Shown here one piece after another: positions 5,686 through 19,669 of a stretch of 64,000 bases of DNA. Numbering within the stretch: the stretch's first letter is position 1; every line of letters starts with the position of its first letter. The notes below the pieces were generated by a model. It ran no database searches, was not told where the DNA came from, and worked only from the letters and a program-made list of their open reading frames with translations. Origin of the DNA: Catajapyx aquilonaris. Its lineage: Eukaryota. A program made the translations under genes and the position numbers. The stretch spans positions 1-64,000 of the forward strand of contig JYFJ02001724.1 of the NCBI GenBank assembly GCA_000934665.2, read 5' to 3'.

Positions 5686-6935
5686 GTTGTGTGAATATAA
5701 AACAGACTGCAAACCTTTAGTGGCCAACCCCTTGTTTAACTACACCTGCGATATCATTAGATGTAGCAGGTAGTCCTGTAAGTAATTCTCTGGTATCCAG
5801 AAATGTACCCTTAGAGGTTTGTCAGTATCTTATGGAATACACTAGTTCCTGGATGCCTGCTGTTCCAGTCACAGGCAAAAGTATGATTACTAATATCACT
5901 CCCTATACCAGGGGTATTCAACTAGTTTATGACAAGGTCCAGTATTTACCTTTCCCGGGCCATTGAAGGTCTGGACCCCCCCCACCCCCCACCCAGGTAA
6001 AGATATGGATTATATCTTTTTATATGGTACTGTACCACAGGGTTCATTTTTGAACATAGAAACATGTGCAGCAAGGGTAGAAGACAGGATATATTAAGAC
6101 ATTTTTGGCCTTCATTATGTCCTGNGGGGGGGGGGGTGTAGAAGGTCACACGAGCCTAGGTGAAAGTGGGAGATTTGAATGGGTGTGTATTTGATAAAAT
6201 TGGTAGCACTTTTTCCAAAAAATCATGAATTAGTAATTTCTAATGCTATTTCAAACTGTCCTGTATATCGTCGTGGTCTGGACAAAATTACGGTTGAATA
6301 TCCCTGCCCTATACCATCTGGTAATCCCTGCATCCCGTGCAGTGACTAAAACACAGCATGAAAGCCCAGCAAATGAAATAGGATGTTGTGGTGGTCAGTA
6401 TGCACGTCAAGTTGGCCTTTTATTTTGGCCATCAAAGGTACCACCTTACCAAATCTCACTAAATATTGTTGCGCCCAACTTCTTGCAACTCATTTGTACT
6501 ATGCATCATCTGTAGGAGCTGAAATGACTACCACACACAAAGGGCAAATAACACTTAATAAACTTTCTTTCAAATAACCCAATGCCCTTTGACATTTGAG
6601 TAGTTGTATTAACAGTCATAATACAGTATGTGCACAATTGAATGCAGTACCCCACCAAACATTTTCCGTACCAGTCTAACTGTAAGGAACCTAAGGAGAA
6701 ATCTGTGTGAAGTGGATTCTATTGGATTTTGACAATTACCCAAGGATTCACGCAGTGGGTGTACCAGTGGTTGACTTATGCAAAACCTTATAAGCTGTTC
6801 GAAAACAGTTGAAAATGATAAAGGCTGATAAATTGGGACCACATGTGAAATGGTATCATGTTCCTAAAAATAAAAACACTGAGAAAGTATGTTTATTGAT
6901 TCCAAGGAAAAGTTATAATCTAAATCTTCTTGCAG

Positions 6936-7896
6936 GTACAAATGCACACTCTGCACCTTCAAGTGCTTTGACAAGTGTGGTTGCATTGCACACGTGAAGA
7001 AGATGCATCCAGATGCAGAGGCCATTGACAATGTGCAATTCATCCAGGTCAAGGCTGATGACACCAAGGACAACACAGTGTGTGTTCTGGCAAATAATGC
7101 TGCACTAGAGGTGGCTGATAAGGTTGATTTTCTGACGAATGGTTGTAATGAGGACAGTGCCAGTGATGATGAAAGAGAAGAAGCCAATGATGAGAGTTGT
7201 AGTGACAGGGTCTCTGAATCAGATGCAACCTTCCCATCCAAGAGCTCTACACAGAGTGGGGAGTTATCCAGTGAAATGGTGACAAACAGTGATAGTGATG
7301 ATGGTAGAACCAGCAAGTCAACGAGGAACACCAGCTTGTCACGGACCAGCATGAGTGAAAGTGATAATTACCTCTATAACAACGTGCACTCCTCACGCAA
7401 CTCATACAGTGAAGACGAAAGCAACAGTTCCGAACTAGACGTCCTTCAAGGAGAGGTTACTCCAGATTCCCCTGACTGTGAACCAATTGTCAATGGGCAT
7501 GATGAAACACTGGAAGATGTAGTTGTGAATGTGCCAGACGATGTTGATTCTGATAGCTCTGGAGATGTTCGATATTTGTCTGATGGTGTAGTTGTGCCAC
7601 CAAAGAAGATCAGCCAAATACGAGCTATAATGAAGTCAGTCCTCGAGGGTGACTCTGAAGAGAGTTCAGACTGGGAGTGCCAAACATTGCCTGACACACT
7701 GAAGGAGCGTAGTAAAAAGAAGGGAAAGAAGAGGCGCAGATCAGCAGATGATGGAGTGTACAACGAAAAAATCAATGGCATTACTCCAAGGAAACACAAG
7801 CATTCAATGGCAGAGTTGAGGTGTAGAAGTGTGGAAGACACACAGGGTGAAACAGACGATGATATGCCAGTCCTTGAGAACATGTTGGTGCTATAG
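6936..7896 (+). CDS. C2H2 zinc-finger protein, last coding exon
   Basis: Acceptor tcttcttgcag|G matches phase 2 of the previous exon, giving ...HMEWYR-YKCTLCTFKCFDKCGCIAHVKKMH (tandem finger); then an acidic/Ser-rich tail and basic NLS-like KKKGKKRRR; TAG at 7894-7896. Confidence 0.85.
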
Positions 7897-8955
7897 TTGG
7901 CACCATGTTTAGTGTCAACACTATTTGGAGATCTTCTTGCATTTTACCCAACAATCTCAGGTCAAGGGCAATTGTATTTGACTTAACAGAGTAGCTTCCA
8001 TTATCTCTTATGGAGTCAGTGAGGGACTGAATAAATTGGTAATTCCTTGGTACAAGCTCCTCTCCAGAAACTGCTAAGTTGATCATGTTAATGGCATACG
8101 GAGGAGGACACAAGCAAAATATATTACCTTCAATTTCTAAATGTGATTGTTATCTATTATTTTAACACTGATGCCTTAATCCTAGCAAGTCCAAGTCGAT
8201 TTGACTCATTTTTCGTGATCCAGACAATGTGGGTCAATACCAATAAAAGTAAACCAGTACTTGCTCATGTGTTAAATATTCCAGTGTCTTTAGTACAAAC
8301 CGTCATCATAATAAACTGTGTTTTCGTAACAACAAAAATTAGCAACTTTGGAGTTTCATGTGCAAAAGACTCACTATATTCCGTTATGAATTAATGGTTT
8401 TTTGTTGTTTTTTGTTAACTACTCAGTGTCACAAGTGTAGCTTCATTAAATTGCCTGATCTCACTGACTGACACTTGGTTCATGCTGTGATGGTTTGAGT
8501 TTTCAAGTTTGATGTTTACTATATTGGGTCTTTTTGCTGTCTGAGAAACTGACTTTCTGTATTTTCTCGCATTGGCTCCATAATAGTTTGTTCTAATTTA
8601 TTTTTAATTTTCTCATCCACATTTACTATAGTTACAAATGAAGTTATACCCCTCTCTAATTAGCACTGCCAAAGTTAAAAGCTCTGTAAGTAAAGTTAAT
8701 TGCAAAATCTGCGTGATGATACATGTCCTTTTGTTGTATAAAGTGTATTATAATAGTAGGTATAATCATGTACAAGGGTAAAATAGAAGGGAGCGATTTT
8801 TTAATTATCAATGTACCTGCATTCCTACTGTTACATGCAGGGATATCTTCTTTTTTCCTCCCCAACATTTCCCCCCATTCCCCTCCACTTTTGTAATAAA
8901 TCAGAAAATTGTAACAGATGCATCATCAATCTCTGGCTATGTGGGTTACCTCACA

Positions 8956-9033
8956 CTATTGATGTAGGGAGACCCACCTGATGTTTGGCCGTAGGAGCAA
9001 CTGCGGTCGCTGAATTTCATCCAGTTCCTTGAC
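8956..9033 (-). CDS. UQCC1: Ubiquinol-cytochrome c reductase complex assembly factor 1 (CBP3 family), last coding exon
   Basis: Acceptor tatctttccag|GTC; encodes VKELDEIQRPQLLLRPNIRWVSLHQ*, in phase with the previous exon. Confidence 0.8.
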   Translation of the reverse strand, partial: VKELDEIQRPQLLLRPNIRWVSLHQ

Positions 9034-9426
9034 CTGGAAAGATATAACCAGAGTTAAAGGTAATTTTCACATTCTCCTCTCTATGGCAAGATTGTGAAGA
9101 TTAGTTCGCACTGTTCAGCTAGGGCAAAACTTACAGGTCCTTGGCACTCAAAAAACAGTTACCTTCATAGGCTTGGAACACTTGCATACCATTTTTTGAG
9201 TTCCAGAGGTACATTTCCATTTTATGCAGATTTTTCAGTGCTCTCAGGCCCTTGCAAAGTAACTTATAGGAGAATCCCACACCATCTTTTCTTGGTCATC
9301 CCATCAGCAGAGCAGAGGCAGCTTGCCTAACCCAGTCAACTCCTAGTCATTCACCCCAAATAGGTCACATGCACAGGTCATGTGAAACCTGGCTTTAACG
9401 GACCATGGGTATAGTGGTAACATATC

Positions 9427-9595
9427 TCTGCCGTCAGATGTAAGAAGACTGTAACTCAAAAACTAGTAAGGGCGAAAGTCGCATGCACGCCCTGCACTAA
9501 TCCCCTCTGAGCCAGGGTGGATTAGTGCAAGGCATGCATGCGACTTTCGCCCGTACTAGTTTTTGAGTTACGGTCTTCTTACAACTGACGGCAGA
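9427..9595. repeat. Near-perfect long palindrome (fold-back MITE) in the last UQCC1 intron
   Basis: ~75-bp arms TCTGCCGTCAGATGTAAGAAGACTGTAACTCAAAAACTAGTA... / ...TACTAGTTTTTGAGTTACGGTCTTCTTACAACTGACGGCAGA with few mismatches and a short loop. Confidence 0.9.
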
Positions 9596-9779
9596 TCTAC
9601 TGTGGATATTAATTAGGTATTCTCTCTCTGATGCGCAAAAGGGTTTTGCCCAATTGTGTCGGACTGTCAAGCAGAGAATTTGGTAGGCACGAATATGTCA
9701 TTGTAAATGGTGTAATCCGCCATTATTTGCCCAAGAAATACCTCATTACATATTTAGCAGGTTAATAAGGTATCTGCAC

Positions 9780-9974
9780 CTGTTTCCGGATGTACGCCAC
9801 CATCTTCTCCAGTAGGAGTGGCTCATCGCAGTTCCTCTGAAAAAACCTTCTCCACAGTGCTCCTGCCAGCACAATATCTCCTTTCTGAATGCCTTCATCA
9901 TAGCTGAAGAGAGCACCATTGAACTGGTCGCTCAGCTCCTGAACCACAATCTTCCTCTCAGAGAGTGGCAATTC
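9780..9974 (-). CDS. UQCC1: UQCC1 coding exon 4
   Basis: Acceptor ttctattgcag|GAA; ELSDQFNGALFSYDEGIQKGDIVLAGALWRRFF...LLEKMVAYIRKQ carries the CBP3/UQCC1 YDEG...LA.ALWR signature; donor CAG|gtgcag. Confidence 0.93.
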
Positions 9975-10035
9975 CTGCAATAGAAATGGGACTTTATGAA
10001 TCACTTGTGGGAGGAATATTGAGAATTTAACTCAC

Positions 10036-10275
10036 TGTGAGTTTCTTGCTCCTCATGTGGACATCATTCCAGAGTGCTTCAATCATGGAATTTCGAACGT
10101 AGTGCCCTTCATCCCCTTCCGCAGTCAGGCGGACCATTAGCATCCACACATGCAGTTCTGTCACTAGGAACCATGAGTACATTGTGTCTGCCATCTTGAA
10201 TTCGGTGAAGAAGTCTTCATAGGATAGTTTGTCTACAATGTTCTCCAACAGGGTGTATCCACTTGCTTTCAGCTT
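10036..10275 (-). CDS. UQCC1: UQCC1 coding exon 3
   Basis: Acceptor taattag|AAG; KLKASGYTLLE...FKMADTMYSWFLVTELHVWMLMVRL...EALWNDV, the conserved DT..SWF..TELHVW motif; donor ACA|gtgagt followed by a 61-nt intron. Confidence 0.93.
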
Positions 10276-10411
10276 CTAATTAGGGAGTGTTGCATGTCAG
10301 TTTTTTAGTTCACTACCATAAAACACTGGTTTGATAGCATGTACCTATGTAGCAATATAATTTTATACGCAAAAATGAATTTGATTTCTCCATACTTCTA
10401 TCACGTAAAAT

Positions 10412-11200
10412 TAGTCATAACTAAAGTTTCCAACCTGGGGGTCACGGGCAGGGTCGCGGGGGGTCGCGAACCTTTGTTCAACTTTTTTGGAATCGGGGTC
10501 GCTTTGAAGGGGGTCGCACATTTATGGAAACATGTTTAGGGGGTAGGAGGTGGTAAAAGGTTGGAAACCACTGGAATAGGCATTACAAAACCTCACTTAG
10601 GCCCAAAATGTTACTTTTGTGGGTGTATGGAGGATAATGTTACAGTTAAAATCAAGAGACATTTTATAGGCCTACAGTAGGCCCTATAATTATATGATCA
10701 CAAACTACAGCAAACACCGAATAACAACGATTAACCTACAGAAAATCACAACTTAGTTGAAAGACACAAAGTAACACTTGCTGGACTCTACCACTTATAG
10801 CCTGTTTCCACTTGCACAGTGTACCAAATATTTTTTCTAGATTTTTATTAGTGAAATGAATTACTTCTGAATGATTTTGATCCTTTCAAGAGCACAAAAA
10901 ATACTCTGTAAAAAAAAATATGCTTCTGAAAGAACAGGTCCAGAATAGGCCCAAGAAATCCTAAAATTGCTTCAAAAAGTTCAAAAACTATCCTTTAAAA
11001 AGGCCAAATAGGCATGAATAGATGCAAACAGCCAGAATAGGCAAAATAGTTCCCAAAATCACGAAATAGGCAACTTTAGGCACTATAAAACCTACATTTT
11101 CCACATCCTGCACTTATGAAATAGATAGGTCTCTTTGCAAAACCATCCCAACTGTAAAGGAACGAAATATGCCTAACAATCTGGACTTTAGTCATAACTA
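10412..11200. mobile_element. ~0.7 kb non-autonomous DNA element, copy 2 (left TIR interrupted by a small MITE)
   Basis: Same orientation as, and homologous to, 2647-3360; left end TAGTCATAACTAAAGT, right end TGCCTAACAATCTGGACTTTAGTCATAACTA. Confidence 0.85.
10426..10573. mobile_element. Small hAT-like MITE
   Basis: GTTTCCAACCT (10426) / AGGTTGGAAACCACTG (ends 10573), i.e. a CAGTGGTTTCCAACC-type TIR with the left end clipped; internal GGGGTCGC repeats. Confidence 0.7.
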
Positions 11201-11603
11201 ACAAATTAGCCTTTTCAGTATATATTTACTGGAGTCTTGGGAGATCTTGACTTGCAATTGTAATATTTTTCAAGAATTCAAAACCTTACTACTCCTATAA
11301 ATGATGAGTGTAGCAAACTTTTTTTTCACATCTGCAGATATGTTCACATTTTTTATGTTTATTGTATTTATTTATTTTCTTTACCCCGTGATAGAGCAGT
11401 GCTTTCTTGGGGGGGAAATTAACAATTATGTTGCACACCGTGCAGCATATTTTCATAAATTCCAGTATTCACATAGCAAGCTATTGGGGCTAATGCTGCA
11501 TAAATAATGTTCAACAGACAAGACTAACGTATTTGGCCTTATAAAAATACTCTATATCATGGATACTCATTTTGCCTATGAAGGGAAAATTGTGTATGCT
11601 TAC

Positions 11604-11717
11604 ACTTTTGGAGATGTCCAGCCATCCCATCTTGCGTCCTAGCTTCTGCATCATGGTGTATTCTTTTTGTACTGCTCTAAGTGTTGGTGATGTGATATAG
11701 TTCATCCGTGGTTGCAG
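11604..11717 (-). CDS. UQCC1: UQCC1 coding exon 2
   Basis: Acceptor catttttaaag|CTG; LQPRMNYITSPTLRAVQKEYTMMQKLGRKMGWLDISKS; donor AGT|gtaagc; phase 0 on both sides. Confidence 0.8.
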
Positions 11718-11798
11718 CTTTAAAAATGAGGATGTCAAGTAGTGTTCTTAGGCACTCTAGGCTACAGTCACCAACAATTCTATTTTTCTTGAACCTAC

Positions 11799-11879
11799 CA
11801 ACTGCAAGCACCTGATAGGTAACCTCAGCTTCCAGCCTGTCGACACTACTCTGGATAGAGTCAACATTCTCACATACAT
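11799..11879 (-). CDS. UQCC1: UQCC1 first coding exon (mitochondrial presequence-like)
   Basis: Strong acceptor ttttgtcctccacag|AC ATG at 11881; MYVRMLTLSRVVSTGWKLRLPIRCLQL is Arg-rich and has no acidic residues, as expected of a targeting peptide; donor TTG|gtaggt, 81-nt intron, in frame with the next exon. Not in the ORF track. Confidence 0.75.
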
Positions 11880-12410
11880 GTCTGTGGAGGACAAAATTTG
11901 TAACATGTAGCAGATCAATTATGTCAGAATCATTATGAAATCTATCTGGGAAACGTGACTTGAAACACTTGGGACTTGGCACAAACTCTTTTATTATTGA
12001 CATTGTATCCATGCATGAGAAATCATTACTTAAAAAGACAATTTTCTTGAGCACACTGGCATTTCCCCATCACACCAGTTCCTTGATTCAGTCTCTTTAT
12101 TTATCTCAGAAATTATCCCTTTAGCCAGATATACATGTACAGATACATTTAAATAGCCAACATACCATATTTAGGAATATGCATCCAATCATACATGTGG
12201 AAAATTTATAACGTCAACTTGTGATTGCTATAAATTAGCATGTACAGTAATTACACTTGTGGCCCAAGCAATCACACCCTCATGACTAATGACTATGCTT
12301 TACCTAAATAGGAGTGTAAAATTATTTTCCTAACCATTCTTACAATGGAAGTGCTTTGCAATGGAATGTATATAAATTTACAATATTGAAAAGAGTGGAA
12401 TAAAGCTCAC

Positions 12411-12459
12411 CCTACTTATTCTGAGGCCATGCATGTGTTTACAGGCAGACCTCACTATA
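12411..12459 (-). other. Candidate 49-nt upstream/alternative exon of UQCC1
   Basis: Acceptor cttttattccatacag| and donor AGG|gtgagc; contains an ATG at 12434 reading MHGLRISR up to the donor. Confidence 0.4.
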
Positions 12460-12630
12460 CTGTATGGAATAAAAGTTTCTTAAAATGTGTATGAATGGAA
12501 ACTTCTCATACATCCTGAGTATATCTCCCCTAAGCAGCCAATAGAAAAGTACAAGGTATGTTCGCCTTTGATCTATAACTAATTGAAACACCTATTTACT
12601 CATTGAAATTGTTGAGGTTGAGTTACTTAT

Positions 12631-12806
12631 TAGTCAAACCTGTGTATAGTGGAATTGTATGGGACCAAAAAAAAATCCACAATGGACAGGCTACAGCTAT
12701 AGCTGTCAAAAATACATTTCATGTCCTCCAGTCATTCCCAAAAATAATTCCACAATGGACAAGATTCCGCTACACTCAGGCTCCGTTATGGACAGGTTTA
12801 TGTGTA
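12631..12806. mobile_element. Degenerate pogo/Tigger-like MITE
   Basis: TAGTCAAACCTGTGTATAGTGGA / TCCGTTATGGACAGGTTTATGTGTA resemble CAGTCAAACCTGT...ACAGGTTTGACTG ends; internal repeat TCCACAATGGACA x2. Confidence 0.5.
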
Positions 12807-14031
12807 GTTGTGGGTATTATCTGGGTCGTGCAGAAAATAATTTTGCATGATCAAACCATTCACATGGCACAACGATTTTATAATTAAATACTGTTTTTCA
12901 TTGTTAGTAAATGTTTTCTCAACAATAAGTAGCAATGGAAAACATTAAATGAACTTTGGTGCCATGTGAGTGGTCAATATATCTTTATACCATTATTTTC
13001 AGGTTTTAAATAACTAACCAATTCCTAGGCTAATCAACCTTGGTTTCAACCTATTTCAGGTGAATCCAAAAGAAACTGGTGTACTGTACACCTGCAATTC
13101 AAGTTTCACAGCATTGGTGTTATGCATAACATGCAATGATACAACTAATTGGACTTCCATCTATCACTACCATTTTAAAAATACCAATTATGGAAAGTTC
13201 CTTGAATTTTCTATGGTCACTTTAAAAGCCATGAAATTGCAAGTTAGCAACTTTCAATTTCAGATTTTCACAGCTCAAGAGAGCAAATCAGAAAGAAATA
13301 AGTTTCACTTTTCCATCTAATATGGTGAACAACTTTCACTAAAAACTATTGTTACACAACAATATCAATATTCTGCAACAGCCTTTTCTCACGATCTGCT
13401 ACTGGTTCCATAAATTCATGAACAAATGTGTAACACTAATCTTCAGATACAACCTATGATCTTGATTACTGTAATATGGCAGCATCACAACTTCCTCTTT
13501 GCTTTGGCTTATTATTGGGATCTGCTTTATTTACACAACTTATCCCTTTGAACAACCCTCTGGGTATGCAGTGCCTCAGGTGATTGCTGTAGTTATAAGG
13601 ATGTTTTAAAAACAAGTTTCCGGTTTTTATTGTTAGTGGGTGAGCATTATGTCCACTAAGCCTCTTCAGCTAATGACACTAATGACACTAACAGCAGCAG
13701 AGTTACAATGCATATACTCAATACATTGCATCAACGTACGTGTCACTCATGAATGGCAATGTAGTTCATAAAATTTCGAAAATTAAAATCACAACAACAC
13801 TGAAAAAAGACTGTCACTTTTGACACCCAGTTTAAAATAAAACCAACCCATGCCTAGAAGAACGCCGTTGACTTCACAAAAATGCATTATAATAAATTTA
13901 ACATTTAAATATCACATTAAAAATCTTATTTCCCATATTACAATATCATTGATACCAATACTAGTGTTCTTCAAAAGGAGGAATTCAGTTTGAAGCCATA
14001 TAAAGGGTAAAAAATTACAGAGGAAAAAAAA

Positions 14032-14610
14032 TCATTCTGAAATTTGCAAAAGTGAATTGACAGTCGCATCTTTGTTCCCTGCATTTGCCTCAAACACAGT
14101 CTTGATTGTGTCGGCATCCACATTGGGAAACATATCCTGAATCAACTTTAGCTCCTGCTCAGTAAGCTCAGGAGGTGGGGGAGGTGGTTGCTGCACTACC
14201 TGCCCTTGGGGAAGCCCTTGAGGAAGCCCTTGGGGAAGCCCTTGGGGAATCCCTTGGGTTGTCCCAGGGTAATAGGCAGGTTGCACACCATAGGGAACCA
14301 TCACAGGACCTCTTCCACCTGTCTGCGGGGCCCAACCAGAGAGGTGTGGGTGGGAGTGGGGATGGGTGACATTTGGCTGATAGGTAGGCAGTTGGGAGTG
14401 ACTCAGGACCAGGTTGACCATCCCTTCCTTTCCCTCCCCTTGCTTTCCGCTAAGTGGGTGCCAATCATCCAAAGTCTCTCCCCCTTGTATCACCGCAGGA
14501 GGAATCTGGATGTGGGCCCAGGCTATCAGTTCATCCATGGTGAAGGCGCACTCGTCATAGATCTCCAGGTATATGGCATTCACGCCCTTCGGCACGTAGC
14601 ACTGCACCAC
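14032..14610 (-). CDS. TOLLIP: Toll-interacting protein, coding exon 2 (second half of C2 domain, Pro/Gln linker, CUE domain)
   Basis: Acceptor tgcttgtgacaag|GTG; VVQCYVPKGVNAIYLEIYDECAFTMDELIAW...DDWHPLSGKQGEGKEGMVNLVLS and CUE motif IQDMFPNVDADTIKTVFEANAGNKDATVNSLL; TGA at 14034-14032. Confidence 0.95.
   Translation of the reverse strand: MVQCYVPKGVNAIYLEIYDECAFTMDELIAWAHIQIPPAVIQGGETLDDWHPLSGKQGEGKEGMVNLVLSHSQLPTYQPNVTHPHSHPHLSGWAPQTGGRGPVMVPYGVQPAYYPGTTQGIPQGLPQGLPQGLPQGQVVQQPPPPPPELTEQELKLIQDMFPNVDADTIKTVFEANAGNKDATVNSLLQISE
14203..14258 (-). repeat. Coding 12-bp tandem repeat (~4.7 units) encoding (G[I/L]PQ)n in Tollip
   Basis: CCCTTGGGGAAG units on the + strand; protein TQGIPQGLPQGLPQGLPQGQ. 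Confidence 0.9.
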
Positions 14611-14981
14611 CTTGTCACAAGCACACCACATTATTAGACTTTGCAACATGTTCTAATGGCAGAACCATCATTCCCCATTCACTTCATAAAATGTAACTTT
14701 CTCTAAAAAGGTTAGAAGAATAGTTATCACATGCTCAAAATTATTAAAAGTTAAGGGTTAGCTAAAGATAAAGTGAAACTATTAGGATTGTGTCCAACGC
14801 CCTCTTTTCGCAGCATGTAATTTTGGTGTGGGGCGGGTGTAGAGGGGGGGGGGGGGGGGNGGGGGGGGGGAACTCAGTGTTGAACACTTTTTTTTTTTTT
14901 TGGAAAAATAGAGGATAAATATGGTTCCACCATTACTTATATTCTTTATGTATTATTTGTTCCTGGGAAACAAAATTGTAC

Positions 14982-15398
14982 CTTGTTCCATTTCGGGTTC
15001 TTGGCCCCATTTGTGTCAGTGTGTGTCTCATACACATTATGACCAACCCTCATCCGAACATATGGATCCATGCGGGTCATGCCATAATTCTTGGCGAGCT
15101 TGGCTTGGACTATGGTAACGCTCAGCCTCCCTGCTGCATTCCATGGGTGAAGCAGCTGGTGCTGCAAGGCCCAAGCCGCTTGCTCGTCAGCTGCTTCTTG
15201 CATCTGAGTTGCGCTCATTGCCTCTCCCTCAGTGTTGTAGTCCACCTCGTCACCCACACGAAGGAAGGAAGGCGGGAGAGAGCCCAGGAAAACACGACGT
15301 CTGCGCTCAGCATTCCGCTGGTCAGGTGTCAATGAAGACAAGTCTGGTGCTACACCTGCCTCCACTGCTTTTTCGGCCCCAACTCCCATTGCAGCCAT
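14982..15398 (-). CDS. TOLLIP: Toll-interacting protein, coding exon 1 (Tom1-binding region, first half of C2 domain)
   Basis: ATG at 15398 (MAAMGV...); VFLGSLPPSFLRV, ADEQAAWALQ and GRLSVTIVQAKLAKNYGMTRMDPYVRMRVG...NGAKNPKWNK are hallmark Tollip motifs; donor AAG|gtacaa. Confidence 0.95.
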
Positions 15399-15495
15399 TT
15401 TTTTTATTGTTATAAATTTTTCCCCCACTTATGCACTATTCAGTCTGGGTCTGTTTTTCGTAGAACTTCGCCGAGTGTCACTCTTTAGGCACAGA

Positions 15496-15690
15496 CTGGA
15501 AGAAGGAACAGTCCATCTCAGTCTGCCTACTTGGACTCGCAGCATGTAAACCCATTGGGTTGGTCACAATTACCAACAAACAATTTAAAATAATCAAGAT
15601 TCATCGCTAACCGCAAAGGTGATTCATAACACTGTCTAGAGTTGCCACATCCAACGTTAACAAGCCAAAACTTTCCTGCACCTATACAAC
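15496..15690 (-). promoter_or_regulatory. Probable Tollip 5'UTR intron (15573-15496), non-coding leader exon and core promoter
   Basis: Donor TTG|gtaatt at 15573 and acceptor gttccttcttccag| at 15496 define a 78-nt intron, similar in size to neighbouring short introns; CpG content rises here. TSS not determinable. Confidence 0.45.
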
Positions 15691-15691
15691 A

Positions 15692-16739
15692 TAGAGGGCC
15701 TTGAAGAAGAGAGTTGACAACTTGTTATGTAAGGTCGTCTCTGATTGTCTGGAGTAATTTTGGAGTGTTTACATTACAAGGCCCGTATCTTCGACGTCTC
15801 ATGCAAACATGCGGGAGGAGCCATAATCTTCTAGAGAAACTTTCCATTGCCGTTAATCCCTGACGAGGAAAGAACCCTGGGAGTAGTTAATTTTGTTACT
15901 TAAAAATGTGTTGATTTTTACTCTCGCTGCAGAACCCTGTTAACTCCCCTCTGCGAGCGCCTCCCGCAGGTTTGCGCGAGACGTCGAAGATCCGGGCCTT
16001 ACGTGTCATATGGAGGCTGTCATCTTGAACTGCTGTGGAAACGGTATTCTCAAACCATGGAAACGGTGGCTGGCTCTGACGTCACGATTGCAGTTCGCAT
16101 GCCCTCACACAATTTGGATGCATCAAGAACAAAGAGTTCTGCTATAATATATTATACCTGATTATACTAATACCTAGAGAGAGCACTCAGGTTGAAACGT
16201 GAGTCAGGCAACAATATTACCTAAATAAAGATGGCGGACGCTTGACATTATTGGACTAATTGTCATCCCAGTTGTCATTATTGGTTGTTGTCCCAGTTGC
16301 TCGACAACTGTTAGAACAACAATATGACACAATATTACCTAAGTAAAGATGGTGGCTGCCTCAGCCTGGCCAATAGGAAAGGATAGGGAGTACTTTCTCT
16401 AGGTATACATAATATTATAGCAGAACTCTTTGGAGCCAGCTTCGGTTTCCACAGTTTTAGAATACCGTTTCCGCAGCAATTCAACATGGCGGCCCCCAAA
16501 TGACACGTAAACTAGTAACGTAAACACTCCAAAATTACTCCAGCCAATTAGAGACAACCTTACAAAATGTAAGGAAAATGAGAGAACGATCTGACGTCAT
16601 AAAGGTTTCCACGGAAATACCCTCACAGAACAATACGAGTAAACAGTGCCAACAAAAAGCAACAATTGAAGAAACGTCAGATATAGTTCTCTCGTTTTCC
16701 GAACATCAATTTGTCGACTCTCTTCTTCAAGGCTCTCTA
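15692..16739. mobile_element. hAT-like non-autonomous element with three further nested inverted-repeat layers
   Basis: 29-bp TIR TAGAGGGCCTTGAAGAAGAGAGTTGACAA / TTGTCGACTCTCTTCTTCAAGGCTCTCTA; 8-bp TSD ATACAACA at 15684-15691 and 16740-16747; inner IR pairs at ~15728/16564, ~15778/16000 and 16131/16431. Confidence 0.88.
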
Positions 16740-17947
16740 ATACAACATAGTGGGTAATAGGGAAGTAATTTCTAAATTACATTAACAAAATTACTTGGTT
16801 TTTCCTGAACAACAGTATGTGACAGGTGAGTAATGCATTCCTCTGCGGCAGTCCCTCACCACCTAAATATTGTGAAGCAATTTACATTCCTATCATAGGC
16901 TGAAAGCAAAGAAGTTAACGAGAATATCCATACTGTGAGAATGCTGGTTTACCAATATTTCAGAAGAATGGCAGGGTTGTTTCAACTAAGCAACCCCACA
17001 CCAATGTGGCATGTCGATAAGTACTGTAAATAACATTGTCAACTCCCCATTGCTGTGCTTGCTGTGACCTTAACCTGGGCTTGTTGCAATATGTGAGGTC
17101 ATGACCTAATGCGAACCACCAATATGGCCCTTATCAGACCCAGTCGCATTCTCTTTTTTTTTCCTGGTCAAGTCTCCCTCAGCCCATCCTCCGAGACATA
17201 CCTGACACGCAAAGTGCTGGTCTGATGCAACAGTCATCCCCCTCTCGAAGCAGCAGTGAGTCAAAGGGCCGGCCAAATAATGGTGGTGGTGGTGGGGGGG
17301 GTGTTCTGCGAAAAGTGCATTACGTACGTACCCCTTCTCGATCCTCTCTCTGCTGCAGTGAGGGGGTGCCAAGGTGGGTCGTGACCGTGATCCCTGGGCA
17401 GGGTCCAAAAGGTCGGTCAGGTGGATCGAGGCAGGTGCGCAGACACGGCCAATCTACTTCAGCACCACAGAAGATAAAACGTTGCAGAACAGATCAAGAC
17501 GCCATTTGCTTGGGCCCATTCCCACCACCGCTCCACGGAACAGTTCTCTCCCCCCTCTGCCACATGCAGCAGACTTGAGAGGTGCACTGCACACCCTGCT
17601 TCTTGGTCCTCCCTGCCCCTTCCCATCCAACTGAACCAAGCAATAGGTTTGAGTGGGGAATAAAACCAGACACTGGTCCAGTAAAAATGACTACAGCGTG
17701 ATCTTCATTCGCCCATGGAACAGAACACTGTACAGTACAACTGTTTCGACAGGGTGCAAACCTCCGGTACAAACAAGCACACTGCCTGTACAAATGATGA
17801 CCAGACGCTGCTTAGAGGCTTCAACCCTGCCTTCATTATAAGCTTATGAAATTGAGTGGAAAAAAATTGGACAAGACATTATCCTTCTCATATGCAGGGT
17901 ATTAATTCCAGCCAAGAGCCATCATTTCCCTGATTAGGCTACACACT

Positions 17948-17985
17948 GCCAATGCTAATTCTCCAACTGGAGAATTAGCATTGGC
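17948..17985. repeat. Perfect 18-bp-stem hairpin
   Basis: GCCAATGCTAATTCTCCA-AC-TGGAGAATTAGCATTGGC. Confidence 0.9.
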
Positions 17986-18129
17986 TGGTGTTATCTCCAC
18001 TTACAGTTCCACAGAGTGCACAGACAACATATAGTTACAATCTCAGGTACTGCAACATAAATTAATATATTGGTCGAGTTTTAGTATAATGTCACCAATG
18101 TTTACTCATAATTCTTCATAAAAAGGTGG

Positions 18130-19130
18130 TAACAATCCATCTGGTGTGGCACTTGGACAGACATTCAAGAATGCCCTTGCACAATGCATTGTTGATGTTA
18201 TACCCACTCATTCACACAAGTGTCAAGAACTCCTGAATTCTGTAGTTGGAACTCTGCTGATGGTGAGAATCAATTCAATAAGCCGAACAGATTGGCAGAT
18301 GAGCAACGAATAGGGAAGGTTCTGAATATTTCACAATGTTGCTATTTTTATAGCACGAGTATTGAGAATCCAAATTTACAGAAGAGGCACACTTGAAAGC
18401 TACACGCCATCATTTTCTGTTCTCCCCACTACACCAAGACACTTGTCCCAATATCACAACAGGCTGCAACAGGCAATGTCTCCAGTTCAGAAGCCATTCT
18501 ACTGACTTTGAAGAGCCCATGGAAGATCATAACATTGGAGGCACAAATAAGCAAGGGTTTCTCGTGGGCCATTCATGAAGCATATTCCATCACATCTGTA
18601 TTTACTCCAACACTGACCTCTGCAAACACCTAGTAATTAGTAGAGATTCATAACAATGTCCACCCACCAACTTCGCCTTTCCTGACTTTGTTAACCCTGC
18701 CATGTCAGCCTCCTGACCTTGAATGTGGCTTATCAACCTGGTCAGTAACTAACACTGTATTAGTGCTTGACCTGGTGTAGTGACACAAAGGCCCAGAAGG
18801 TCAGAACACCTAACAATTCTCCACAATGACCACACATGCCCTGGAAGTAGTCACAAATTTGGCTATGCACTCGACATGCAATAATGATTATGAGAGGTGC
18901 TCTGGTATGTTGTGAAGCCATTTCAGATTCACATGTCTAAATTCTAAATTCCCATGTGATGCCTGCCATGACGGAGACAGTCAGCAGAACTGCTTCATCA
19001 TCAACTCGAGCCCATGCCAATGCAATACTGTCTCCTGTTAGAACAAGTTCATCAACACTAAGAGGAATGACATTAGAAAACTGCGATGGAGTCAAGTTTT
19101 CAAACACTACTTTCTGTCACTCACAAATAT
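18130..19130 (+). pseudogene. Possible highly decayed Crypton-like/DUF3504 tyrosine recombinase remnant
   Basis: Frameshifted fragments in the expected order: IFHNVAIFIAR, HNIGG, CPP..FVNP, GPEGQNT/NNS, and a Ser/Thr-rich tail ending TLENCDGVKFSNTTF. Motif resemblance judged by eye only. Confidence 0.3.
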
Positions 19131-19669
19131 TTTACTGTAAAAGGAAAGCAAAATACTTGTTTAACCATTCTTATGCCCATAGCTCAATAGAATTTGTCAT
19201 CTGCACGGACTTACGGATTTCGTCAACTTATTTTGCACCAAAAGATCATTCACATCCTGTGATCTCACACTTTTCACTAGATGACAGTAACAATCACTCT
19301 GTTGATAACCTGTATTCAACCTTGAAAGCTGATGAAAGTAAACCCAAATAATCCAGCTGTAAACTCATTGTACAGTGTCAGGAGAGATATATTCATTGGA
19401 GTATATCATGAAGGGAGATATATGGCGACACTCTTAAGGTGTCACAAAAGGGAAGATGGGAAACAGGTAGGTGTGGTATGGTTCATGGGTTGAGGAGTAA
19501 CCAGGTAAGTTTAATGAGGGTACCACCACTTCACATACCTGGACTTTCACTTTCCTGTTACACCCTTCCCACACCAATAATCTGGATGCAAATATCCTCA
19601 CACACCCGGGTCCACTTTGAATGAGGGGGATGGGTCTTGCATACATAGCTTGTTGTCATCATTGTTAAC

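Follow-up and report, generated by a model that had tools for sequence, protein, structure and literature searches.

Two genes, Tollip upstream and UQCC1 downstream, lie head-to-tail on the minus strand of a 64-kb stretch of eukaryotic, intron-bearing DNA from Catajapyx aquilonaris (contig JYFJ02001724.1, positions 1 to 64,000; this whole stretch is called the window). They code for distinct proteins from separate exons and have no coding sequence in common. The UQCC1 start codon stands immediately behind a splice acceptor, which raises the question of where the messenger RNA (mRNA) of this gene obtains its first exon. The original prediction, made from the sequence alone, was that one leader exon serves both genes, with Tollip nested in the first intron of UQCC1. 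Transcript contigs uphold a good part of this idea: the UQCC1 mRNA carries a non-coding leader exon that is located upstream of Tollip and is spliced directly to position 11881, and Tollip is accordingly found inside UQCC1 intron 1. However, the leader ends at 17332 and not at 15574 as had been proposed, while its use by Tollip, although likely, is deduced from indirect evidence.

The identity of both genes is confirmed by the protein families they contain. In the Tollip open reading frame (ORF) pieces 15428-14946 and 14652-14032, Pfam recognizes a C2 domain (PF00168, E 2.6e-07) and a CUE domain (PF02845, E 9.6e-11), i.e., the central C2 and C-terminal CUE that identify a Tollip protein. Relatives of this protein number 127 at E<=0.001 among 2570 candidates, with a top identity of 54 %, and those that bear a name are mostly insect "toll-interacting protein". 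UQCC1/Cbp3 is identified by the family Ubiq_cyt_C_chap (PF03981), found in the ORF pieces 10275-10027 and 10031-9762 (E 5e-11 and 2.8e-11); the two exons concerned cover profile positions 2-57 and 67-123 of 140. PF03981 is the sole family in 10 of 10 UQCC1 relatives, the closest of which is an unnamed protein (68 % identity), followed among the named ones by Cryptotermes secundus UQCC1 (67 %).

The UQCC1 leader exon lies beyond Tollip

The transcript evidence comes from one public sequencing run (X1), whose kind is unrecorded and which is kept as contigs built on 31-letter words; 0.42 of the sampled words matched, and the contigs were aligned on 8000-17000 of the window. The run is treated as RNA-derived because its contigs skip GT..AG introns. 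Three spliced joints are seen, reading CT..AC on the plus strand and hence GT..AG on the minus strand: 9031/9778 (cut +2, skipping 746 nucleotides, nt), 10275/11604 (skipping 1328) and 11717/11799 (skipping 81).

The 5' end of UQCC1 is carried by a contig of 455 nt (record 2, depth 8.57). Its letters 228-455 fall on 10048-10275 and its letters 114-227 on 11604-11717. The remaining side continues with 84 letters on 11799-11882 and then with 29 loose letters that fit nowhere in the aligned stretch. The exon letters of this contig show no difference from the window. When taken in reverse complement, the loose letters match the window exactly at a single place, 17333-17361 on the minus strand, which also provides the sole match at up to three mismatches; none of 100 shuffles matched and none would be expected to. 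In the genome this match is followed by a G (17332) and then by the donor GTACGT (17331-17326). The contig letter aligned at 11882 is also a G and hence ambiguous, bringing the leader side to 30 letters (29+1). Since this G fits 11882 as well as 17332, the canonical reading places the end of the exon at 17332, the donor GT at 17331-17330 and the acceptor AG at 11883-11882. UQCC1 intron 1 thus extends from 17331 to 11882, a GT..AG intron of 5450 nt that encloses the whole of Tollip (exons 15495-11976).

Several expectations drawn beforehand from the sequence are borne out by these contigs. The UQCC1 ATG does stand 2 nt past a pyrimidine tract and CAG acceptor, with the exon starting at 11881, and record 2 shows that this acceptor is used. 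The need for a further upstream exon, deduced from this arrangement, is answered by the 29 letters found beyond the acceptor. The 2.1 kb separating the Tollip stop codon from UQCC1 had been described as CpG-poor, and the observed/expected ratio of CpG (CpG o/e) is indeed 0.07-0.41 in 500-nt windows over 11750-13999 as compared to 0.70 for the whole window. This region is covered by contigs, one of which (record 3) runs unbroken over 11976-13212, and depth is present in every bin of 11913-14621. On the other hand, a bicistronic mature mRNA, which had been offered as an alternative, is disfavoured by the direct junction of the leader to 11881 in the only UQCC1 5' contig, a type of record in which rare forms could be missed.

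The leader itself lies within a local peak of G+C content (0.52-0.55). ATG is absent from 17504-17332 and from the 98-nt part of Tollip exon 2 that forms 5' untranslated region (5'UTR), and either splice would therefore provide a clean leader. An exact scan of metagenome contigs for the leader returned 0 loci. In the minimum-energy fold of 17225-17375 (minus strand), the leader pairs with an intronic complement about 75-110 nt downstream of the donor. The fold does not reach significance (z -1.86; equally good folds in 8 of 200 shuffles) and is not used as evidence, but pairing of this kind could delay the use of the donor.

A probably shared leader with two acceptors

The exon start of Tollip at 15495 is preceded by a pyrimidine tract and CAG. 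A 397-nt contig (record 6) has its letters 1-368 on 15129-15496 and 29 further letters beyond the Tollip acceptor, which means that this acceptor (15497-15496, exon from 15495) is used as well. The overhangs of the Tollip and UQCC1 contigs are equal: 29 letters and an ambiguous G make 30, which is k minus 1 for 31-letter words. In such an assembly, an upstream exon whose final 30 letters can continue in at least two ways makes the next contig begin 30 letters ahead of the junction, whereas several alternative upstream partners of one exon would instead produce an exon contig without leader letters. The first exon letters of the two genes differ, being A at 11881 and T at 15495. Equal 30-letter overhangs with differing next letters therefore point to two contigs that are partners at one branch, in other words to a shared leader with two acceptors. 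From the length of the overhang we thus consider it likely, with a good measure of confidence, that Tollip uses the same leader as UQCC1.

The most probable interpretation of the locus is a single two-gene transcription unit, in which Tollip and UQCC1 have a common leader and are separated by alternative cis-splicing. A single promoter upstream of 17361 would give rise to a short non-coding leader that ends at 17332 and offers the donor GTACGT. Splicing of this donor to the proximal acceptor (15496/15495) would generate the Tollip mRNA, with two further exons, a 3'UTR of about 2.06 kb and a probable end near 11976. Splicing to the distal acceptor (11882/11881), with removal of the 5450-nt intron, would generate the UQCC1 mRNA with its ATG 2 nt past the junction. 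UQCC1 output would require that the leader donor is still unspliced and that the polymerase passes the Tollip polyadenylation (poly(A)) site, which presumably precedes the acceptor by only about 95 nt. Proximal splicing and cleavage would compete with distal splicing, and this competition would determine the Tollip:UQCC1 ratio.

The position of the poly(A) site in this scheme is suggested by sequence and coverage. There are four AATAAA motifs between 14040 and 11850, the last of them at 11995-11990, and record 3 ends at 11976, i.e., 14 nt downstream of this motif; a contig end is no proof of an RNA end. The Tollip 3'UTR would accordingly measure about 2.06 kb and end some 95 nt before the UQCC1 acceptor. 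Contigs in the last Tollip exon cover 14177-14615, 13502-13885 and 11976-13212, and the bins separating these contigs all show depth.

A number of points weigh against a common transcription unit. The sharing of the leader by Tollip is deduced from the length of the overhang and not from its sequence. The leader exon, its 5' end and the leader-to-Tollip joint are outside the aligned stretch, which ends at 17000. With its 30 letters, the leader side of record 2 is one letter below the 31-letter bridge rule, and the leader is single-copy within the 64-kb window, further copies being possible elsewhere in the genome. The leader region is only mildly CpG-enriched (o/e about 0.5). Finally, one run kept as contigs drops rare forms, and a second promoter for UQCC1 or Tollip is possible. 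Two holes in the coverage, namely zero depth in the bin 15525-15825, where the leader exon was originally placed, and the lack of contig letters at 11883-11975, are not used as evidence in either direction.

Among the competing explanations, the one that survives best, although unlikely, assumes separate promoters. Tollip would be a nested gene with its own leader and transcription start site in 15497-17331, for example on an exon ending at 15574, and would simply be spanned by the intron that follows the UQCC1 leader at 17332. The sequence of the letters beyond the Tollip acceptor is not part of the evidence, a GT in fair context is available at 15573, and FlyBase deems same-strand intron-nested genes too ordinary to flag, according to the available part of its report (PMC4528330). 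However, a private Tollip leader would need to show exactly 30 letters by chance, as in the UQCC1 contig. In addition, a contig that stops after 30 leader letters implies that its leader has another continuation in the run, which a private leader would lack.

Trans-splicing of a spliced leader (SL), also raised by the original prediction, is far less probable. In this case the 30 letters would be the 3' part of an SL that is given to both genes and resolves a Tollip-UQCC1 operon, with 17332-17361 as one copy of an SL RNA gene. Both contigs end 30 letters into the leader, as would be the case for a leader common to many mRNAs, and a GT donor follows directly. Likewise, a gap of about 95 nt between the putative poly(A) site and the acceptor is akin to the intercistronic spacing of nematodes. 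Yet the leader occurs once in 64 kb, in cis, on the same strand and exactly upstream of both acceptors, and it is not followed by the Sm-site motifs looked for. The SLIDR paper uses AT{4,6}G as its default Sm-binding motif and expects it 20-60 nt downstream of the donor (PMC7986045, available part); the four motifs taken from or modelled on this paper have no match in the 152 nt past the donor. A looser pattern of our own making, AT{3,6}G, has one match there, as ATTTG. A search of 15400-19400 against Rfam at E up to 1 identifies no SL family; its two sub-gathering matches, mir-130 (E 0.85) and sR22 (E 0.91), are far below gathering and are dismissed as chance. The fold around the leader is unexceptional by the figures given above. 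Moreover, the closest protein relatives are from insects, a group in which SL trans-splicing is absent according to the same partly available source (PMC7986045).

An artefact is, if anything, a shade less credible still. The leader junction could stem from a chimera in the 31-mer graph, a template switch of reverse transcriptase or a retrocopy, with UQCC1 transcribed instead from a promoter of its own that lies just upstream of 11881, and it is true that the leader side consists of only 30 letters in one contig of one run at the depth quoted above. However, each 31-letter word across the junction must occur in reads, and the two sides of the break coincide exactly with a canonical donor and a canonical acceptor, sites which chance chimeras ignore. 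The exon letters are identical to those of the window, and even a retrocopy would testify to the same spliced mRNA.

Least probable of all is the exact model first put forward, with a leader ending at 15574 that is spliced to either 15495 or 12459/11881: there is a donor-like GT at 15573 (G/GTAATT) and a potential intron of 78 nt up to 15496, but the UQCC1 leader letters match 17333-17361 and not 15574-15602, the actual leader end lies 1.76 kb upstream of 15574, and no joint interrupts the continuous record 3 (11976-13212) where it passes over the candidate exon 12459-12411, so that the model is contradicted for UQCC1 and keeps a place only for Tollip.

Gene models and surroundings

The features of the locus are collected in Table 1. 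The UQCC1 model comprises 235 amino acids in five coding exons, and all of its internal introns are seen in contigs. For the intron between exons 3 and 4, the evidence consists of 10 loose contig letters at 9974 which, read in reverse complement, are the last letters of exon 3. The predicted N-terminus is basic and rich in Ser and Leu, and looks like a mitochondrial presequence. Within UQCC1 intron 4, at 9430-9600, a near-perfect palindrome can be discerned by eye (about 80 nt per arm, centre near 9500), which is probably a small insertion of a foldback element or miniature inverted-repeat transposable element (MITE).

Table 1 Features of the Tollip/UQCC1 locus (positions in the window; CDS, coding sequence)
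Feature	Position	Strand	Basis
Leader exon, non-coding	17332..17361 (minimum extent, 30 nt)	-	Contig letters, single match in the window
Leader splice donor GTACGT	17326..17331	-	Read from the sequence
UQCC1 intron 1, holds all of Tollip	11882..17331	-	Leader letters joined to 11881 in record 2
Putative Tollip intron 1, 1836 nt	15496..17331	-	Use of the acceptor seen; donor at 17332 likely from the identical 29-letter overhang
Leader exon as originally proposed, with donor GT 15573 (differs from the UQCC1 leader)	15574..15602	-	UQCC1 leader letters match 17333-17361
Foldback or MITE-like element, about 1 kb	15692..16739	.	Four nested inverted-repeat arm pairs (I1-I4)
Tollip exon 2: 98-nt 5'UTR, then CDS that begins at ATG 15397-15395 and encodes the N-terminal part and the first half of C2	14983..15495	-	Record 6 covers 15129-15496
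Final Tollip exon, with the remainder of C2, the linker of Gly-Leu-Pro-Gln repeats, CUE, stop 14034-14032 and a 3'UTR of about 2.06 kb	11976..14610	-	Contigs; 3' end probable
AATAAA, likely Tollip poly(A) signal	11990..11995	-	Precedes the UQCC1 acceptor by about 110 nt
UQCC1 first coding exon, ATG 11879-11877	11799..11881	-	Joint 11717/11799, 84-letter contig side
UQCC1 coding exon 2	11604..11717	-	Joints 11717/11799 and 10275/11604
UQCC1 coding exon 3, first part of PF03981	10036..10275	-	Pfam and contigs
UQCC1 coding exon 4, second part of PF03981	9780..9974	-	Pfam; 10 loose letters at 9974
UQCC1 last exon, stop 8958-8956, 3'UTR of at least 560 nt	8395..9033	-	Joint 9031/9778; record 1 covers 8395-9031

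The coding sequence of Tollip is divided between two exons. In the linker that joins C2 to CUE, a 12-nt tandem repeat at 14202-14258 (4.8 copies, 93 % matches) encodes the Gly-Leu-Pro-Gln repeat. In the intron between the coding exons, at about 14840-14900, a long poly-C run broken by N is found beside poly-A and likely reflects assembly uncertainty. Two variants occur in the 3'UTR as represented in run X1: in one contig, 12655-12782 is replaced by 20 letters, and a 16-letter insertion is present behind 13754. Both are presumably allelic indels. Among the Tollip relatives, a 266-amino-acid protein of Haematobia irritans (P0045) has C2 and CUE, yet is named "rho GDP-dissociation inhibitor isoform X1" at NCBI; it is maybe another Tollip that was modelled together with a neighbouring gene. 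No fused Tollip-UQCC1 protein is found among the relatives, since the single longer Tollip relative lacks PF03981 and 10 of 10 UQCC1 relatives have PF03981 only, which constitutes weak evidence.

The intron separating the leader from Tollip harbours the foldback element listed in Table 1, whose arms of 33-78 nt are 83-91 % complementary. CpG o/e reaches 0.61-0.94 in windows over 15500-16999. It is this element, with its nested inverted repeats at 15692-16739, that accounts for the CpG-richer DNA between leader and Tollip, which had been taken for promoter-like sequence beside 15573. Contigs of run X1 also fit parts of the element (bin 16127-16427, depth 16) and diverge at 16328, 16561 and 16566, which suggests that other expressed copies exist elsewhere in the genome.

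Outside the gene pair, Pfam detects very little: one of 15 ORFs in one set has a sub-threshold zinc finger, and none of 102 ORFs of at least 85 amino acids in the other set has a family. By this search of the ORFs outside the pair, no upstream gene able to own the leader is found. In 18000-64000, no stop-to-stop ORF of at least 85 amino acids contains a Pfam family, leaving about 46 kb upstream of the leader without a recognizable coding gene; the same region has a negative GC skew throughout (cumulative -5.7 over the window). On the other side, an open frame of 325 amino acids on the plus strand (6919-7896), acidic and Ser-rich, is convergent with the 3' end of UQCC1 and has no Pfam family.

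Related gene arrangements and biological meaning

The layout matches a documented class of loci, represented by the shared-promoter pairs of Drosophila and by the cholinergic locus, and the class itself is well known. The available part of the FlyBase report mentions 130 D. melanogaster genes flagged as having a common promoter and common 5' non-coding exons, and supplement file 6 of this report lists VAChT (PMC4528330). The Drosophila rule-bender pairs, e.g., Ip259/RpS27A, belong to the same class, but they concern another species and other gene pairs: neither Tollip nor Uqcc appears in the 12 supplementary files of that report that were searched (file 1 excluded). In Ixodes ticks, ChAT and VAChT share exon 1, and the exon with the VAChT ORF is located in ChAT intron 1, as described in the accessible part of the corresponding article (PMC7524744). 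The cholinergic locus resembles Tollip/UQCC1 in that two different proteins are made from one locus. There are differences, however. ChAT and VAChT belong to a single pathway, with a layout that is kept across metazoans; for Tollip and UQCC1, no common pathway is established. The VAChT ORF also occupies a single exon, whereas two coding exons and a 2-kb 3'UTR are found in Tollip. In C. elegans, the cholinergic locus takes the form of unc-17/cha-1.

Nematode SL2 operons offer a second comparison. There, as proposed for the present locus, one promoter serves two unrelated genes and the downstream cistron receives a capped leader at its acceptor, which is found about 100 nt after the poly(A) signal of the upstream gene. 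In contrast, the leader of the present locus is a genomic exon of the same unit and is joined in cis, and the SL RNA features that were tested are not found. Read-through or conjoined genes are similar insofar as transcription must cross the 3' end of the upstream gene. They differ in their product: the UQCC1 contig contains no Tollip exon, and the relatives include no fused protein.

Whether the two proteins have a reason to be paired is a matter of speculation. Published links exist between Tollip and Parkin-dependent mitochondrial-derived vesicles (PMC7265236), and UQCC1 has a role in cytochrome b and complex III (PMC3873243), as far as the available portions of these articles go. Neither of the two full-text matches naming both Tollip and UQCC1 is a gene-structure paper as judged by title and the start of the abstract. 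A bolder version of the common transcription unit, which we regard as doubtful, would turn the locus into a "cis-spliced-leader operon". Lacking its own promoter, UQCC1 would depend on transcription that continues past a functional Tollip poly(A) site before the leader donor has been spliced. An endosomal/autophagy adaptor and an assembly factor for cytochrome b and complex III would then be coupled inversely through the choice between cleavage and distal splicing, and the pairing might be a lineage-conserved module of mitochondrial quality control.

Since the class is already well documented, the general interest of the finding is modest. Its immediate consequence is a corrected gene model, in which the first exon of UQCC1 is placed 5.45 kb upstream, beyond Tollip; automatic annotation therefore probably truncates the 5' end of UQCC1 or misses the link between the two genes. 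Outside the cholinergic locus and D. melanogaster, the pair would provide a transcript-supported case of two unrelated proteins that share one leader through the choice of alternative 3' splice sites. The locus would thereby also be a simple system in which polyadenylation competes with distal splicing.

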